The position numbers and the translations under genes were made by a program. Shown in pieces: positions 6,554-38,896 of a stretch of 64,000 bases of DNA (the stretch's first letter is position 1; each line of letters starts with the position of its first letter). The stretch lies in the IMG/VR virus record IMGVR_UViG_3300037312_000757; one strand, given 5' to 3'. The stretch is from a virus (lineage: Duplodnaviria > Heunggongvirae > Uroviricota > Caudoviricetes). The notes below the pieces were generated by a model. That model did not search any database. It had not been told where the DNA came from and was given only the letters and a program-made list of their open reading frames with translations.

Positions 6554-8644
6554 ATGAGTTTCAGTTCATTCAAGTCAACCCCATCTGGTTACAAAAACGA
6601 ACCAGGTGCAGGTCGCATAGTAGAAGGAAAGATCTACATTGGTATCGTGAAGAACAATGTGGACATGCAACGCATGGGCCGTCTGGAAGTGTATATCCCA
6701 GAAATGGGCGGCGATCCGAAAAATACAGCACACTGGTTTATCGTCAGTTACGCTTCTCCATTCGCCGGTGTTTCAGACCCATCAGCACGTGTTGCTAACT
6801 CACACCTCTACGGAGAAAGCCAACAATCATACGGATGGTGGGCAGTTCCGCCTGATGTTGAAAACCAAGTGCTAGTCACCTTCGTCAACGGTGAAGCATC
6901 AAAGGGATTCTGGTTCGCTTGCATATACTCGCAGAACATGAACCACATGGTTCCTGGTGTTGCGATTGATAACAGTTTCGACATGAATGGTGACAAAAGC
7001 ATGCCACCAGTTGTCGAATACAATAAGCTTGATCCATCAATCAACACTAACGCCCCTGTCCGTCCACGCTTTGATCCATTGGCAGCAGGCTTGGTTCAAC
7101 AAGGTCTGACCTACGACTTCGAACGAGGTTCAGCGTCATCATCAGCACGACGCGAAGCACCATCACGAGTGTTCGGTTATCTGACCCCACGAGCAAACCA
7201 AGTCTACGTTGACGACAATCCAGACAACGAATTCATCCGTCTCCGTACTCGCTCAGGCACACAAGTCCTGGTACACGAAACTAATGGTTACGTCTACATC
7301 AACTCAGGTTTGGGCAACTCATGGATCGAAGTATCAGATGCTGGCGTCGATATCTACACAGCTGGTTCAATTAGTTGCCACGCAGAACAAGACTTCAATG
7401 TCAGAGCAGATCGAAACATCAATCTCGATGCGGGTGCAAATGTCGTAGTCACCGCCGGTGGAAACATACAGACTCAAAGTGGTATGAATACCTCCATGTC
7501 AGCTGGCGGTACTCTGAAGCTTCTATCAGTCGGCGACATGAGTGGATTGTCACAAGCACAATTGCTATTCACGGCCACAGGTAATCTGCAACTGTCAACG
7601 GCAGCAGCAATGACAGCTTCAGCTTCTGGCGATGTCAACCTGAAGGCTGACGGTAATATGGTAACCGGTGCCGGAGGTAACCACTCCACTAAGGCAGGCA
7701 CGATCATCCGTCAAGCCGGCTCAATCAAGGACAACAGCGGTGCTGCACCTGATCCAACAACCGCAGCACAAGCAACACAACCAGATGCAATCCAGGTTAC
7801 ACAACAAACCGATGGTGCTAATACGGTGAAGACTCCAGTCAGCCGTATGCCAACACACGAACCATGGAAAGGCCATCCAAAGTCAAAGAGCACAAAACCA
7901 CCAGCTGGACAAGTGGCATCAGCTCCATTCTCACCAAATGGTCAAACAGATAGAACTTCACCATTCAAACAAAAGCCTGGTGAAGGTACATCTAACCAAC
8001 CAGATTCCACCCCTCTGACTACCGGTGACGGTAAAGCAGGTGTGATCCCAAATCCATCACTGAGCGGAAATACATCTAATATCAACGGCTTCAAAATCCC
8101 CGTGGAAGTGATGAACGCAATCAGAAAAGCCTCCAGCATCACAGGAGTCGATATCGGCGTTCTGATGGCAATCTGCGCAACAGAGTCAGGCTTCAACCCA
8201 AATGCCTCGGCGCGACCAGCTTCAACAGCAGACGGCCTCTACCAATTCCTGGACGGCTCATGGAAAGATATCATCAAACGATACCCACAATACAATATCA
8301 CCCAGTCCATGAAGAAAGACCCAGAAGCATCAGCTCTGATGGGCGCAGCCTATGCGGCCGAAAATACAAAAATCCTCCAGAAAGGACTAGGACGAACTCC
8401 ACAACCAACTGACATCTACATGGCACACTTCATGGGTCCAGGAGGAGCTCTCAAATTCCTTAAGGCAGATCCAACCGCCAATGCACGCTCAGTGGTACCA
8501 GCCTGGGTGGTGACCTCCAATCCAGATATCTTTAAGGTGTCATCAACAGTACAAGATGTCTACGACGGCTTCCAAAAGAAGATCGGCGGTCGCTGTGTAG
8601 CATTCGCCGCTAAAGCTAATTCTAGTGGTACCGCTACCGCTTAA
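6554..8644 (+). CDS. 5: gp5-like baseplate spike: OB fold, beta-helix and C-terminal SLT lytic transglycosylase
   Basis: MGRLEVYIPE / YGWWAVPPD OB-fold; Gly/Asn/Ser beta-helix repeats; ATESGFNPNA...GLYQF transglycosylase motifs. Confidence 0.85.
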   Translation: MSFSSFKSTPSGYKNEPGAGRIVEGKIYIGIVKNNVDMQRMGRLEVYIPEMGGDPKNTAHWFIVSYASPFAGVSDPSARVANSHLYGESQQSYGWWAVPPDVENQVLVTFVNGEASKGFWFACIYSQNMNHMVPGVAIDNSFDMNGDKSMPPVVEYNKLDPSINTNAPVRPRFDPLAAGLVQQGLTYDFERGSASSSARREAPSRVFGYLTPRANQVYVDDNPDNEFIRLRTRSGTQVLVHETNGYVYINSGLGNSWIEVSDAGVDIYTAGSISCHAEQDFNVRADRNINLDAGANVVVTAGGNIQTQSGMNTSMSAGGTLKLLSVGDMSGLSQAQLLFTATGNLQLSTAAAMTASASGDVNLKADGNMVTGAGGNHSTKAGTIIRQAGSIKDNSGAAPDPTTAAQATQPDAIQVTQQTDGANTVKTPVSRMPTHEPWKGHPKSKSTKPPAGQVASAPFSPNGQTDRTSPFKQKPGEGTSNQPDSTPLTTGDGKAGVIPNPSLSGNTSNINGFKIPVEVMNAIRKASSITGVDIGVLMAICATESGFNPNASARPASTADGLYQFLDGSWKDIIKRYPQYNITQSMKKDPEASALMGAAYAAENTKILQKGLGRTPQPTDIYMAHFMGPGGALKFLKADPTANARSVVPAWVVTSNPDIFKVSSTVQDVYDGFQKKIGGRCVAFAAKANSSGTATA

Positions 8645-8664
8645 TCCTCTATGAGATCACTATT

Positions 8665-8793
8665 TCAGGAATAATTCATGGAGGTTAATGATAGTCGGTA
8701 AACCCTATGGCTATGTCAAACCCAGAGAGAACTCCCTATTATTTCATGGAGGTTACCACTACTTCCTGATAGTACGAAACCCAGGCAGAAGTC
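8665..8793 (+). repeat. Alternating two-motif repeat, locus 1 (2 units)
   Basis: TCATGGAGGTT at 8676 and 8744, each followed by AAACCCAG(AG/GC)AGAA(C/G)TC at 8718 and 8777. Confidence 0.85.
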
Positions 8794-8801
8794 TGGGTTT
8801 T
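8777..8801 (+). terminator. Hairpin/putative terminator built from the last B motif
   Basis: AAACCCAGGC-AGAA-GTCTGGGTTT stem with a T run. Confidence 0.5.
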
Positions 8802-8828
8802 CCATTATCTGAGCATTTAATTCGATGA

Positions 8829-8835
8829 ATAAATA
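8829..8835 (+). promoter_or_regulatory. T4-like late promoter
   Basis: ATAAATA upstream of gp25. Confidence 0.65.
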
Positions 8836-8858
8836 AGTACATAATCGGATGAAAGATA

Positions 8859-35401: not shown

Positions 35402-36015
35402 TAGATTTGAATAAATTCGTGCCAGTGCCATGGACATGCCCAGGCTTCATGCTCGGTAGCGACATTCTAAGTCTAGATCTCCTGCAGTCAATCAATGATT
35501 TCGACTTTTCACTGAGCACACCAGTGTTGCAGTTTAAGCGACGTAGTGTTACCTGCGATCTATTTGATTTCACTCCATCAGGCAAACAACTGATGGATAA
35601 GGTTGGTGATTTGGTTTCATATCTAAATGACGCAGATATTTTGGAATACCTGGTGGTGAAAAGTTTTGAAGGATGTGAGCTTCCATTAAATCGATTTTGG
35701 GCTAATGGAATCGACGCGATTAAACGAGTGCATTCTGGAATGGTTGTGCAACTTACAGAAGACACTATTGGATTCAAGATGTCACCACATGTAGATCACC
35801 GTGAAGTCATTGCCAACATGCAACTCTATCTGGGGCCAAACGGATACGATGTGGGTACCACATTCCATAAAGCAAACAACTGGGACATCACAAAGAAAGT
35901 ACCTTTTGCCACAAACACCGGGTACTTTTGTGTCAATACCGAACAAAGCATTCATAGTGTGACTGTGGATCAAGATATCACACGAAGATCACTCATTATT
36001 AGTTGGACATTATAG
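35398..36015 (+). CDS. 2OG-Fe(II) oxygenase-like protein
   Basis: HVD...H...R motif: PHVD, GTTF, SIHSV, RRSL. Confidence 0.65.
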   Translation: MIDLNKFVPVPWTCPGFMLGSDILSLDLLQSINDFDFSLSTPVLQFKRRSVTCDLFDFTPSGKQLMDKVGDLVSYLNDADILEYLVVKSFEGCELPLNRFWANGIDAIKRVHSGMVVQLTEDTIGFKMSPHVDHREVIANMQLYLGPNGYDVGTTFHKANNWDITKKVPFATNTGYFCVNTEQSIHSVTVDQDITRRSLIISWTL

Positions 36016-36023
36016 GATTAACC

Positions 36024-36128
36024 ATGTGGAATTTTATTAAAGGATTGGTCGAAAAGATCAAAAATGAAATCGCCTACCGCAAACGCATGAAGGCATTAAA
36101 ACGTAAAGATCCATTCATCTACAAATAA
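36024..36128 (+). CDS. 34-aa basic peptide ending DPFIYK (not in ORF track)
   Basis: MWNFIKGLVEKIKNEIAYRKRMKALKRKDPFIYK; AGGA RBS; fills the gap between neighbouring genes. Confidence 0.75.
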   Translation: MWNFIKGLVEKIKNEIAYRKRMKALKRKDPFIYK

Positions 36129-36130
36129 TC

Positions 36131-36962
36131 ATGTATGTTCAGTTCGACGTAATGTCTTTGTGGAACGAAGGTAGAATCGTTCCTCTAATAAACCAAACAA
36201 TGCAGTGGATGCCAAGCGATTCAAAAGAAAACTATAAAGAATCTGGTAACCTCTATACACCCGAATCGTTCGATTATCAATTCAACGATTGGGGATATCG
36301 ATGCGATAGCTTTGCTGGTCCAGAGCAATATCCCTTCAGAGTGTTGTTCATTGGATGCTCATACACTATGGGCATCGGTCTTCCACAGGAAGAAACCTGG
36401 GCCTATAAAACTCTAAAGTCATTGCGTACTCATTACCAACAAGATATCCCATATTGGAACATAGGTTTCGGAGGAGTAGGCACAGATTTCAACGCTAGAA
36501 TGGCTTCAATGGTTATCCCCCACTTGAAACCCAACTTGGTATTGTTTCTTGCACCATCAATGAGTAGAAGAGAAATCATAGAAGAACAAACCCACTTCAA
36601 TGCAATCCCACCAGAATTCATGAATGGCATGAAAACACCTTTTAAACACACGCATTGGCTTCTTCTCCGATGAAGCCAATGCGTACAACTTTATTAAGAA
36701 TATGGTAATGGTAGATGCTCTCACCAAAACCTATGGCGGATCACTCAAATGGATGTCACATCTGGCTTACGAAAAACAACAAGAAGACCAAATACATTCA
36801 ATCCTACCACAATCATTGATTGACAACAAACTTAAATTCAATGTCTTCAAAGCAAATACATTCCCATTCATCGACAAAGCTAGAGACAAAATGCATTCAG
36901 GCCCCAAATCTCATGATCTTTACCATGAACTACTATGGGATGAGTTAAAACATATCCTGTAA
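36131..36962 (+). pseudogene. Second SGNH-like gene split by a +1 frameshift near 36630-36670 (or a sequencing error)
   Basis: GCSYTMG lies in ORF 36131-36673; RDKMHSGP lies in the +1 frame (36702-36962); removing one base at ATGAAAACACCTTTT gives a full-length paralog of 34496-35401. Confidence 0.75.
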
Positions 36963-36991
36963 AAAGAGCCACCATTATGGTGGCTCTTTTT
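36961..36991 (+). terminator. Intrinsic terminator
   Basis: AAAAAGAGCCACCA-TTA-TGGTGGCTCTTTTT. Confidence 0.85.
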
Positions 36992-37132
36992 CATTCGATT
37001 ATCAGCTAAACAACATAATTACCACCATTATAGATGGCAGCAATGACCAATATCTACAACACATCACGGAATTAAACCACTCTATAACCCATTGGTGATT
37101 CCTCCATTAACATCATACTCATCAAACCATCA

Positions 37133-37380
37133 TCACGAATATATCATGGAGGTTCAACGAACTAACTCCTGATAGCTACTAAACCCAGAGAGAACTCCCC
37201 AAATTCCTCACGAAGAACTCATGGAGGTTATCCATGGCATATCTTACCATACCCAGAACCCAGAGAGAAGTCACCATTTCCTCTCCATGAAACCATTTCT
37301 TCACGAATAATTCAATGAGGTAGTCAATCGTGTCAGGGTCTAGGACCCTTCATGGACGACATCAAACCCAGGCAGATCTC
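37133..37380 (+). repeat. Alternating two-motif repeat, locus 2 (3 units)
   Basis: TCACGAA..(TCATGGAGGTT) at 37133, 37208, 37301 (degenerate); (A)AACCCAG(AG/GC)AGA at 37181, 37257, 37364. Confidence 0.85.
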
Positions 37381-37392
37381 TTCATTTTTCCA

Positions 37393-37399
37393 ATAAATA
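37393..37399 (+). promoter_or_regulatory. T4-like late promoter
   Basis: ATAAATA upstream of the carbamoyltransferase. Confidence 0.55.
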
Positions 37400-37423
37400 T
37401 TTGGTTACATAATGGGGGTTCAA

Positions 37424-38896
37424 ATGAAATACCTTGGTATTGTCTCTATGGGACATGATGCATCCGTAGCTCTGGTAGATGGCTACGAAATCCTCTTTGC
37501 TGGACATGCAGAGCGTTATAGCCGTACGAAGAATGACGGTGAAATCAATGCCGCCCTCCTCAAGGACGCATTGAAGTATGGCACTCCGGATCAGATTGTC
37601 TGGTATGAACGCCCTATGTTGAAACGTAGTCGTCAACTCTTCGCCGGTCAATACCAGGAAGTATTCAAGACTCCCTCAATCCGTCAACACCTGAACTCGG
37701 TGGGTATTGGACAATTACCCATCAACATCGTGTCACATCACGAGAGTCATGCTGCGGCTGGCTATTTTACAAGTCCCTTCACAGATGCCTCTATTCTCGT
37801 TTGTGATGCCATCGGAGAGTGGACGTGTATCAGCATCTGGGAGGCGCATGGTGGCTCTTTACGTCAAGTCTGGAAGCAATCCTACCCCCACTCCTTGGGT
37901 CTATTTTACTCGGCCATCACACAACGTTGTGGCTTGAAGCCCAATGAGGAGGAGTTCATTCTCATGGGTATGGCTGCTCTGGGTCAACCAAAGTATGTTG
38001 CCGACCTGAAGAAGGACTTCATCGCATCCGAGCGTGGACCTGACTTTAAGTTGAATACTAACCTCCATCGAGGAATGCTCTGGTGGCGTCCTGATCTGCA
38101 AACCGAACAGGATTACTATGACTTAGCTGCATCTGCTCAGGTTATTGTTGAGGAGTATCTGGAGCAGACTCTGGCATGGATGGCAAAAACTCTTCCATCA
38201 CGTAACTTGGTCATGATGGGCGGCGTTGCATTGAACTGTGTTGCAAATGCAAAGTTGGCAGCACTAGGCATCTATGATGACATCTGGATTATGCCAAACC
38301 CGGGCGATGCCGGTTCATGTATCGGCGCAGTAGCCGCTCATACGAAAAGCCATCTGATGTGGGAATCACCATACTTGGGATACAACATCAAGCGTGAGTT
38401 TGACTTCGAAGGCGCAATGCAAGTATTGCTGAAGGGCGAACCAATTGGTGTCGCTAATGGCCGTGCCGAGTTTGGTCCTCGTGCATTGGGTAATCGTAGT
38501 CTCATTTGTGACCCTCGTGGTCCTAATGTCAAGGACATGATCAACCAGATCAAGAAGCGTGAGCCATTCCGTCCTTTTGCACCAATCATCATGGAACACT
38601 TGGCACATGAATATTTCGATATGCCAGTGAATACTTCACCATACATGCAATTTGTGGCTAACTGCAAGTTCCCAGATCAGTTCCCAGCGATCTGTCACTT
38701 CGACAATACTAGCCGCGTGCAGACGTTGAACAGTGAACAGAATCCAGTCTTCTATGAGTTGCTCGAGCGCTTCTATCAAGCGACTGGATGTCCTATGCTG
38801 CTGAACACGAGTCTGAACATCAAGGGTGAACCATTGGTGAACACATGGCTTGATGCTGTGGGTTTCCGCAACATGTATGGTGTGCAGGTTTTCTAA
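37424..38896 (+). CDS. NodU/CmcH/TobZ-family O-carbamoyltransferase
   Basis: HDASVA, HHESHAA, GGVALNC, PGDAG, EFGPRALGNRS, KREPFRPFAP, LNTSLN; likely start ATG 37424 after GGGGG. Confidence 0.93.
   Translation: MKYLGIVSMGHDASVALVDGYEILFAGHAERYSRTKNDGEINAALLKDALKYGTPDQIVWYERPMLKRSRQLFAGQYQEVFKTPSIRQHLNSVGIGQLPINIVSHHESHAAAGYFTSPFTDASILVCDAIGEWTCISIWEAHGGSLRQVWKQSYPHSLGLFYSAITQRCGLKPNEEEFILMGMAALGQPKYVADLKKDFIASERGPDFKLNTNLHRGMLWWRPDLQTEQDYYDLAASAQVIVEEYLEQTLAWMAKTLPSRNLVMMGGVALNCVANAKLAALGIYDDIWIMPNPGDAGSCIGAVAAHTKSHLMWESPYLGYNIKREFDFEGAMQVLLKGEPIGVANGRAEFGPRALGNRSLICDPRGPNVKDMINQIKKREPFRPFAPIIMEHLAHEYFDMPVNTSPYMQFVANCKFPDQFPAICHFDNTSRVQTLNSEQNPVFYELLERFYQATGCPMLLNTSLNIKGEPLVNTWLDAVGFRNMYGVQVF

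Follow-up and report, generated by a model that had tools for sequence, protein, structure and literature searches.

What is the function of two short motifs that alternate three times in a non-coding region of a large phage genome? The region (36963-37423) is located between an 86-codon ORF and a carbamoyltransferase gene (37412/37424-38896) in the window, by which we mean the whole 64,000-nt stretch of phage DNA that was analysed. The earlier note on this DNA described three units, each of a motif A followed by a motif B, pointed to a similar locus 1, and considered iteron-like sites for replication, packaging, or segregation, or a dual-repeat RNA array not described before.

Repeat Units and Their Surroundings in the Window

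Both motifs are present where they had been placed. Box A (TCACGAA-N4-TCATGGAGGTT) is exact at 37133 and 37208 and has three mismatches at 37301, and box B (AACCCAGRSAGA) occurs at 37182, 37257, and 37365 in locus 2, as well as at 8719 and 8778 in locus 1. The window contains five matches of box A (0.06 expected) and five of box B (0.9 expected), arranged as three units at 37133-37380 and two units at 8665-8790, all on the plus strand (Table 1). The head of box A of the second unit in locus 2 immediately adjoins the tail of box B of the first. The unit periods of locus 2 are 75 and 93 nt, exactly as described earlier, and the period of locus 1 is 68 nt. The A-to-B gaps of 26 and 27 nt were reproduced, while the third gap is 41 nt and not 42 nt. 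The gap sequences do vary; however, they are not unrelated spacers, since a short helix is found at a fixed position within each of them.

It was also correct that the GGCAGA variant is the final box B of each array and that a late-promoter-like ATAAATA follows, 16 nt downstream in locus 2 and 39 nt downstream in locus 1. ATAAATA is rare (78 copies in the genome on both strands). Genome-wide, it is located 16-47 nt downstream at 4 of 15 loci, four of the five multi-unit arrays, versus approximately 0.004 expected per locus. In locus 2, AATAAATA is followed by TACATAAT and then by the carbamoyltransferase gene. A common longer pattern, AATAAATA-N4-6-TACATAAT, can be noted at 37392-37419 and 8828-8848, just before start codons; it may be a conserved late promoter and leader signature of the phage. 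Upstream of locus 2, an inverted repeat at the end of the 86-codon ORF, 140 nt 5' of the first unit, looks like a terminator for the upstream genes. In locus 1, the final box B together with the downstream CTGGGTTTT forms a terminator-like hairpin.

Table 1. Coordinates of the repeat units and adjoining features in the window.
Feature	Position	Strand	Details
Locus 2, unit 1	37120-37205	+	55.5 bits, model R1
Unit 1, extended box A	37120-37154	+	core TCATGGAGGTT 37144-37154
Unit 1, short stem	37162-37164 / 37173-37175	+	CTA / TAG
Unit 1, box B	37181-37205	+	core 37182-37193, AGAGAGA variant
Locus 2, unit 2	37197-37283	+	48.9 bits
Unit 2, box A core	37219-37229	+	
Unit 2, stem	37234-37237 / 37247-37250	+	ATGG / CCAT
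Unit 2, box B core	37257-37268	+	
Locus 2, unit 3	37286-37390	+	18.3 bits
Unit 3, diverged box A	37312-37322	+	TCAATGAGGTA
Unit 3, outer stem	37328-37331 / 37356-37359	+	TCGT / ACGA
Unit 3, inner hairpin	37335-37340 / 37344-37349	+	AGGGTC / GACCCT
Unit 3, box B core	37365-37376	+	GGCAGA variant
Locus 1, two units	8654-8810	+	between gp5-like and gp25-like baseplate genes
Locus 1, box A cores	8676-8686; 8744-8754	+	
Locus 1, box B cores	8719-8730; 8778-8789	+	
Terminator-like inverted repeat	36961-36991	+	perfect, 15 bp, flanking A-run and T-run
AATAAATA of locus 2	37392-37399	+	T4-type late-promoter-like, 16 nt past the last box B
AATAAATA of locus 1	8828-8835	+	downstream of the array
Skew zone of locus 2	36330-37119	+	one-sided; plus strand A+C-rich, G-poor; minus strand G+T-rich
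Skew zone of locus 1	7377-8650	+	one-sided; keto skew -0.31, -0.28, -0.17, -0.30

Structure of the Element and Covariation of Its Stem

The conserved stretches are longer than the motifs first recognised. The element has a length of approximately 100 nt and consists of box A (~35 nt; consensus ..CCAtT..TTCAaCGAAtAATTCATGGAGGTTA), a short stem-loop, and box B (~25-29 nt; consensus AAACCCAG(GC/AG)AGAACTCttcA..). Measured from box core to box core, the units are 46-72 nt in length, and tandem units follow each other with a period of 59-163 nt. The end of box A (GGTT) and the start of box B (AACC) are able to pair and close the stem-loop; this helix is invariant, so covariation neither supports nor refutes it.

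A helix of 4-8 bp is located 3-5 nt inside the GGTT/AACC pair, and in some units a further hairpin caps it. Among the 42 units of this and related genomes, 39 have a Watson-Crick helix of at least 4 bp in the same place, formed by approximately 20 different sequences, such as CTTT/AAAG, GTAT/ATAC, AACAT/ATGTT, and ATCG/CGAT. The parts between the boxes belong to a few recurring stem-loop types and are not unique guides. All four helix pairs are changed on both sides in an alignment of 45 units; this alignment was fitted to the structure in question by a covariance model, which should be kept in mind when reading the 46 double-change cells (14.6 ± 3.5 in shuffles, none of 500 as high) and the 90% of cells paired in register (at most 59% with the partner slid). 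RNAalifold, applied to MAFFT subtype alignments, proposed other helices from invariant bases because the variable stems are out of register there; the covariance-model alignment restored the stem register. A likeness to hammerhead or k-turn structures, suspected by eye, is supported by no model.

The helices are too short and too interrupted for extrusion from duplex DNA, which implies a folded single strand, either RNA or ssDNA. With regard to the folding strand, the opposite one is favoured by minimum free energies but not by z-scores. A.C juxtapositions beside the stem (16 versus 1) also favour the opposite strand; inside the model-aligned stem, G.T exceeds A.C by 7 to 3, which conflicts with the counts beside it.

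Distribution in the Genome

The window is part of a single contig of 523,836 bp (G000), the ends of which overlap by 127 nt, indicating a circular assembly. The genome is that of a phage with T4-like baseplate genes, and its nearest cultured relatives are the Agrobacterium phage Atu_ph07 and the Sinorhizobium phage Phosso (~40% protein identity). The genome-wide motif search, which the earlier note had proposed, revealed 22 units at 15 loci and one decayed copy in the 524-kb genome, and nothing else; pattern scans and the whole-genome covariance model gave the same 22 units at 15 loci. Ten loci contain one unit, three contain two, and two contain three.

The loci are spaced evenly, at intervals of 28-55 kb, or one per ~35 kb. 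With two close pairs merged, the coefficient of variation of the spacing is 0.29 versus ~0.90 for random placement (P ~5e-5), and with the decayed copy included it is 0.22, which is below all 100,000 random trials. The orientation of the elements is mixed, with both senses relative to the neighbouring genes. The association of the loci with gene-strand switches is not significant (P ~0.1), and no flanking gene family common to the loci was found. The decayed copy (genome 27739-27785, minus strand; 29.6 bits, E 3e-4), in which box A is reduced to GTCAGGAGGTT, is located in coding DNA in the one large inter-locus gap. It has no adjoining composition skew of the kind described below and serves as a natural "dead copy" control.

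The genome also contains tandem runs of small genes (~110-147 codons) with faint mutual similarity, at 369054-372186, 373813-375727, and 465737-470713, and four single elements are located in short gaps between these genes, antisense to them. The origin of box B from the A-x-x-F-K-L tail of the small-protein family of this genome was considered and rejected as a four-residue coincidence.

This distribution bears on the readings proposed earlier. The array is not CRISPR, as had been stated, given the two different boxes, the irregular periods (75/93 and 68 nt), the folding and recurring "spacers", and the single unit at 10 of 15 loci. Nor does it correspond to TIGR, in which tandem units are ~36 nt and not 46-72 nt between box cores; no match to the Pfam Nop domain (PF01798) was found in the genome, whereas control genomes matched. 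More generally, the element might be a small or guide RNA array read in the A-to-B direction, or a set of iterons of a single local origin, packaging site, or partition site. The conserved flanks around a variable middle, the stem that covaries as in RNA, and the two or three tandem units of loci 1 and 2 would agree with such a role. However, most loci have only one unit and the stem-loop types are few. A search of Rfam over the window gave no match at gathering thresholds, with only the terminator hairpin matched below threshold, and a tRNA/tmRNA scan found none. In locus 2, the array is preceded by the terminator-like hairpin and followed by the late-promoter-like site, the direction of the composition footprint is the opposite one, and a single pac or par site would not be expected 15 times at even spacing. 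The small-RNA array has no support, and we consider this whole group of readings the least probable of all. The iteron-type origin was rejected as well, since each unit has an internal helix and measures at least 75 nt, the spacing within arrays is irregular, and the 15 loci are dispersed.

One-Sided Composition Skew

Upstream of box A, a stretch of 800 nt is A+C-rich on the element strand at each of the 15 loci (keto skew approximately -0.15 to -0.39), and there is no skew downstream of box B. The skew is maximal 200-400 nt from the element and has faded by ~1 kb. Among the 19 strongest skew zones of the genome (|skew| ≥0.2 over 600 nt), 13 adjoin elements; the zone of locus 2 (genome 67078-68010) is one of the 19. 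In this zone, the keto skew is -0.17, -0.27, and -0.24 in the final three 200-nt bins, and the zone spans the ORFs 36131-36673 and 36702-36962 together with the non-coding leader. The zone of locus 1 is within the 3' part of the gp5-like baseplate hub/lysozyme gene. From locus to locus, the zone covers different, unrelated genes in either orientation.

Third codon positions show the skew most strongly. The changes in base frequency there, given for the complementary strand, are from.266 to.142 for C, from.283 to.398 for T, from.223 to.161 for A, and from.228 to.299 for G. Genes in general have almost no third-position keto skew (+0.02). Together with the near confinement of the strongest skew zones to element flanks, this means that ordinary transcription, even of late structural genes, leaves no such footprint. 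From the C>T and A>G shifts we infer the deamination pattern of a strand that is often single-stranded. The skew could also be selected rather than mutational, for example through G-rich RNA favouring R-loops, or a process unrelated to replication could produce it.

Other strong skew zones (-0.26, -0.29, then +0.28) are found in a region of ~3.5 kb at 514049-517666. The sign flips near 516.6 kb, between arms rich in CTCAGA/CCTCAGAGG and in CCTCTGAGG palindromic words. The 514-517.7 kb region is a separate iteron-like candidate origin or protein-docking region. No pattern was found in the orientation of the elements relative to this CCTCAGAGG palindrome region.

Conservation in Related Phages

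The element is present at syntenic sites with the same polar skew in related uncultured phages. A 290-kb fragment of one such phage contains syntenic elements, each with the same polar skew. Smaller viral contigs also carry the element; where the pattern occurs by chance in unrelated contigs, no skew accompanies it. For the full elements in metagenome contigs (n = 25), the mean skew is -0.185 upstream and -0.009 downstream, compared with +0.015 for 99 chance matches. Comparison of orthologous loci gives ~85% identity for the flanks and near identity for the boxes, whereas the stem-loop is swapped for a different subtype. The boxes are thus constant and the stem module is interchangeable. Presumably, a sequence-specific protein recognises the boxes, and for the stem the ability to form is sufficient.

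In the genomes of Atu_ph07 and Phosso, neither the element nor regular skew zones were found, with only one comparable zone in Atu_ph07. The absence of both from the closest cultured relatives indicates that the system is dispensable in the wider group. When a phage collection was searched at the DNA level with the locus as query, nothing matched. Two rhizosphere metagenome studies contain the phage at extremely high abundance (contig word depth ~1,700 and ~10,000), and a diverged low-depth relative co-occurs with it (window 35800-38200). In one metagenome run, the assembly breaks at the repeat units.

The copy at 166 kb is located inside a conserved gene of 334-346 codons, which is encoded by the opposite strand and whose reading frame continues through the element. 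Here, the element is an in-frame insert of 33-35 codons near the N-terminus (G000 166266-167270 and L030:1370-2410); the middle of the insert differs between the two related phages, and the reading frame is open in both. The homologues, gp065 of Atu_ph07 and a hypothetical protein of Phosso, lack exactly this 33-residue segment, which means that the element was acquired at this site. That a protein tolerates the insert suggests that the position of the element is under selection. Translational bypass and a mini-intron were rejected for this copy in favour of simple in-frame read-through.

Such an insertion could also be expected of a selfish miniature mobile element (MITE, REP, or PeSL-like), the boxes and hairpin of which serve its own transposition or recombination. 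The exchange of the stem-loop module between orthologous loci, the occurrence in both orientations relative to genes, and the tandem copies are compatible with this. Nevertheless, we regard it as very improbable: the elements occupy syntenic positions in two genomes, and terminal inverted repeats, clear target duplications, and a Y1 transposase are lacking. The spread of such an element predicts neither even spacing nor a polar skew at every intact copy. MITE, REP, and IS200-IS605-derived elements were rejected specifically because box B is not box A in inverted form, Y1_Tnp was not matched in the genome (controls matched), and the loci are syntenic in the relative.

Proposed Function and Its Alternatives

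Our leading, though tentative, reading of these features is that the elements are dispersed, unidirectional initiation sites of DNA synthesis, of the R-loop or D-loop type, which fire away from box A. Each locus would be a polar start of nucleic-acid synthesis. In the window, synthesis would proceed leftwards, opposite to the A-to-B direction of the earlier note. The nascent strand, which could be the RNA of an R-loop or DNA primed either from that RNA or by the primase of the phage, would use the strand read in the window as its template, and the complementary strand would be repeatedly displaced for ~0.8 kb, as at T4 oriF/oriG or in the mitochondrial D-loop. The part proximal to the start would be displaced first and filled last, which matches the gradient of the skew. 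Alternatively, the start might be primed directly by the Toprim primase and DnaB-like helicase of the phage. A gene encoding a Toprim-domain primase is located immediately upstream of a DnaB-type helicase gene (G000 158821-160187), and this pair resembles the gene 61/gene 41 pair of T4. The wider proposal, that the chromosome is divided into ~35-kb units set by an orientation-specific initiation module with one-way firing and a deamination footprint, is possible but somewhat less secure.

The polarity limits what the process can be. Any process that proceeds from the element away from box A and repeatedly exposes the complementary strand fits, while a fork or transcript moving towards the element, or resection from a break there, would expose the wrong strand. 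Equating the skew with single-strandedness, placing the synthesis start at the element, and assigning it a role in replication are all steps that we infer from composition. With the one-sided footprint present at every locus, the replication part of the earlier reading gained support, whereas its iteron array gave way to 15 dispersed modular loci. In searches of the genome for MotA, gp59-N, and UvsW-1, no match was found, and the controls were equally empty.

The same polarity would be expected if the element were a very strong promoter or activator site that drives ~1-kb transcripts away from box A and has no role in replication, which we consider unlikely. The skew would then result from transcription-associated damage of the non-template strand or from selection for G-rich RNA. 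In 9 of 15 loci, the genes of the skew zone are directed away from box A; at 126 kb, one such gene starts ~106 nt away from the array, which makes up most of the divergent intergenic region there. At several loci, ATGG is found at a near-fixed distance after box A'. At six loci, however, including both loci of the window, such transcripts would be antisense to resident genes (e.g., gp5). The genes in general are nearly unskewed and the strongest skew is almost confined to the flanks of elements, and even spacing is unexpected for promoters. No consensus promoter was found either: matches to a sigma-70-like promoter directed away from box A are at or below shuffle expectation, and none is conserved. 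A sigma-70 promoter spanning box A was dropped because the conserved part would be its spacer.

More doubtful still is a site for a strand-specific nickase, at which the nick is widened to a gap or used for strand displacement. Such a nick might serve the loading of a sliding clamp, as in the "mobile enhancer" of T4-type late transcription, or the start of recombination or repair synthesis. The G+T-rich strand would become exposed if the strand read in the window were nicked and the nick widened 3'-to-5', or if the other strand were nicked and displacement followed. Folded single strands with conserved flanking boxes are typical targets of nickases, and because ATAAATA is close behind four array loci, clamp-dependent late transcription may be linked to nicking. 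But only 4 of the 15 loci have this late-promoter-like site behind them, and no enzyme of the Y1/HUH transposase type was found in the genome. We therefore rank the initiation site first, the outward promoter second, and the nick or gap site third; the selfish element and the RNA array or local iterons fit poorly.

Comparison with Known Systems

The T4 phage has at least five origins per 169 kb (PMC3016281). They have no common motif and are composed of a MotA-dependent promoter and an A+T-rich unwinding element (Kreuzer & Brister 2010, PMC3016281). At oriF and oriG, synthesis starts unidirectionally from an RNA annealed to one strand, while the other strand is single-stranded (PMC3016281). 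The element described here is similar to oriF and oriG in that several dispersed sites, approximately one per 35 kb, are located inside or beside genes, late structural genes included, and both phages have a T4-like virion and replication gene set. Unlike the T4 origins, every site of this phage is built from one and the same pair of boxes with a covarying stem-loop, in some cases as tandem units; neither a MotA-type nor a sigma-70 promoter could be recognised at the elements; and the zone is skewed over 0.8 kb, whereas the unwinding zone of T4 is merely A+T-rich.

In the mitochondrial D-loop with its 7S DNA, one strand is displaced over 0.5-1 kb beside the start, and the skew grows with the time spent single-stranded. 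CpG-island promoters have GC-skewed R-loop zones, and G-rich transcripts stabilise R-loops. These systems are organellar or eukaryotic, with one site per genome or a link to promoters, whereas the phage has a repeated, sequence-defined module. T4 oriE and plasmid iterons resemble the element in having short non-coding repeats beside baseplate genes and a proposed initiator binding. Iterons, however, are direct repeats of 12-22 bp in helical phase at one locus, while in this phage each unit has an internal stem and a length of ~75-105 nt. Compared with the A-B element, the CCTCAGAGG arrays at 514-517.7 kb look more iteron-like.

PeSL cassettes of T4-type phages, REP/BIME sequences, and mycobacteriophage stoperators are likewise dispersed, oriented, short intergenic sequences with a stem-loop and/or protein-binding boxes, and their copies can mediate recombination with each other. 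A sigma-70 early promoter is part of PeSLs, RAYT (Y1) transposases are required by REPs, and stoperators lack stems and have a length of 13 bp. To our knowledge, none of them is evenly spaced or tied to a polar composition footprint. By analogy, the element would work most like the R-loop origins of T4 or the mitochondrial D-loop, differing from both in its shared module, exchangeable covarying stem, tandem copies, strict spacing, and strong footprint. No such element was described in the literature searched.

The element would bear on how replication is initiated and arranged in phages whose genomes reach hundreds of kilobases; here a compact, conserved module marks 15 evenly spaced sites. 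If the proposed reading is true, this phage would provide the first case among viruses of a recognisable multi-origin (or multi-nick) signal common to its sites, and a dedicated initiator that binds the boxes would be implied. The footprint can be read from the sequence alone and is kept across a clade of soil phages, while it is absent from their nearest cultured relatives. The combination of the repeat with a one-sided third-position skew offers a simple signature for finding analogous sites in other large viruses, and the two boxes, the stem, and the 0.8-kb zone provide precise targets for the study of multi-origin replication, R-loops, and site-specific nicking in megaphages.
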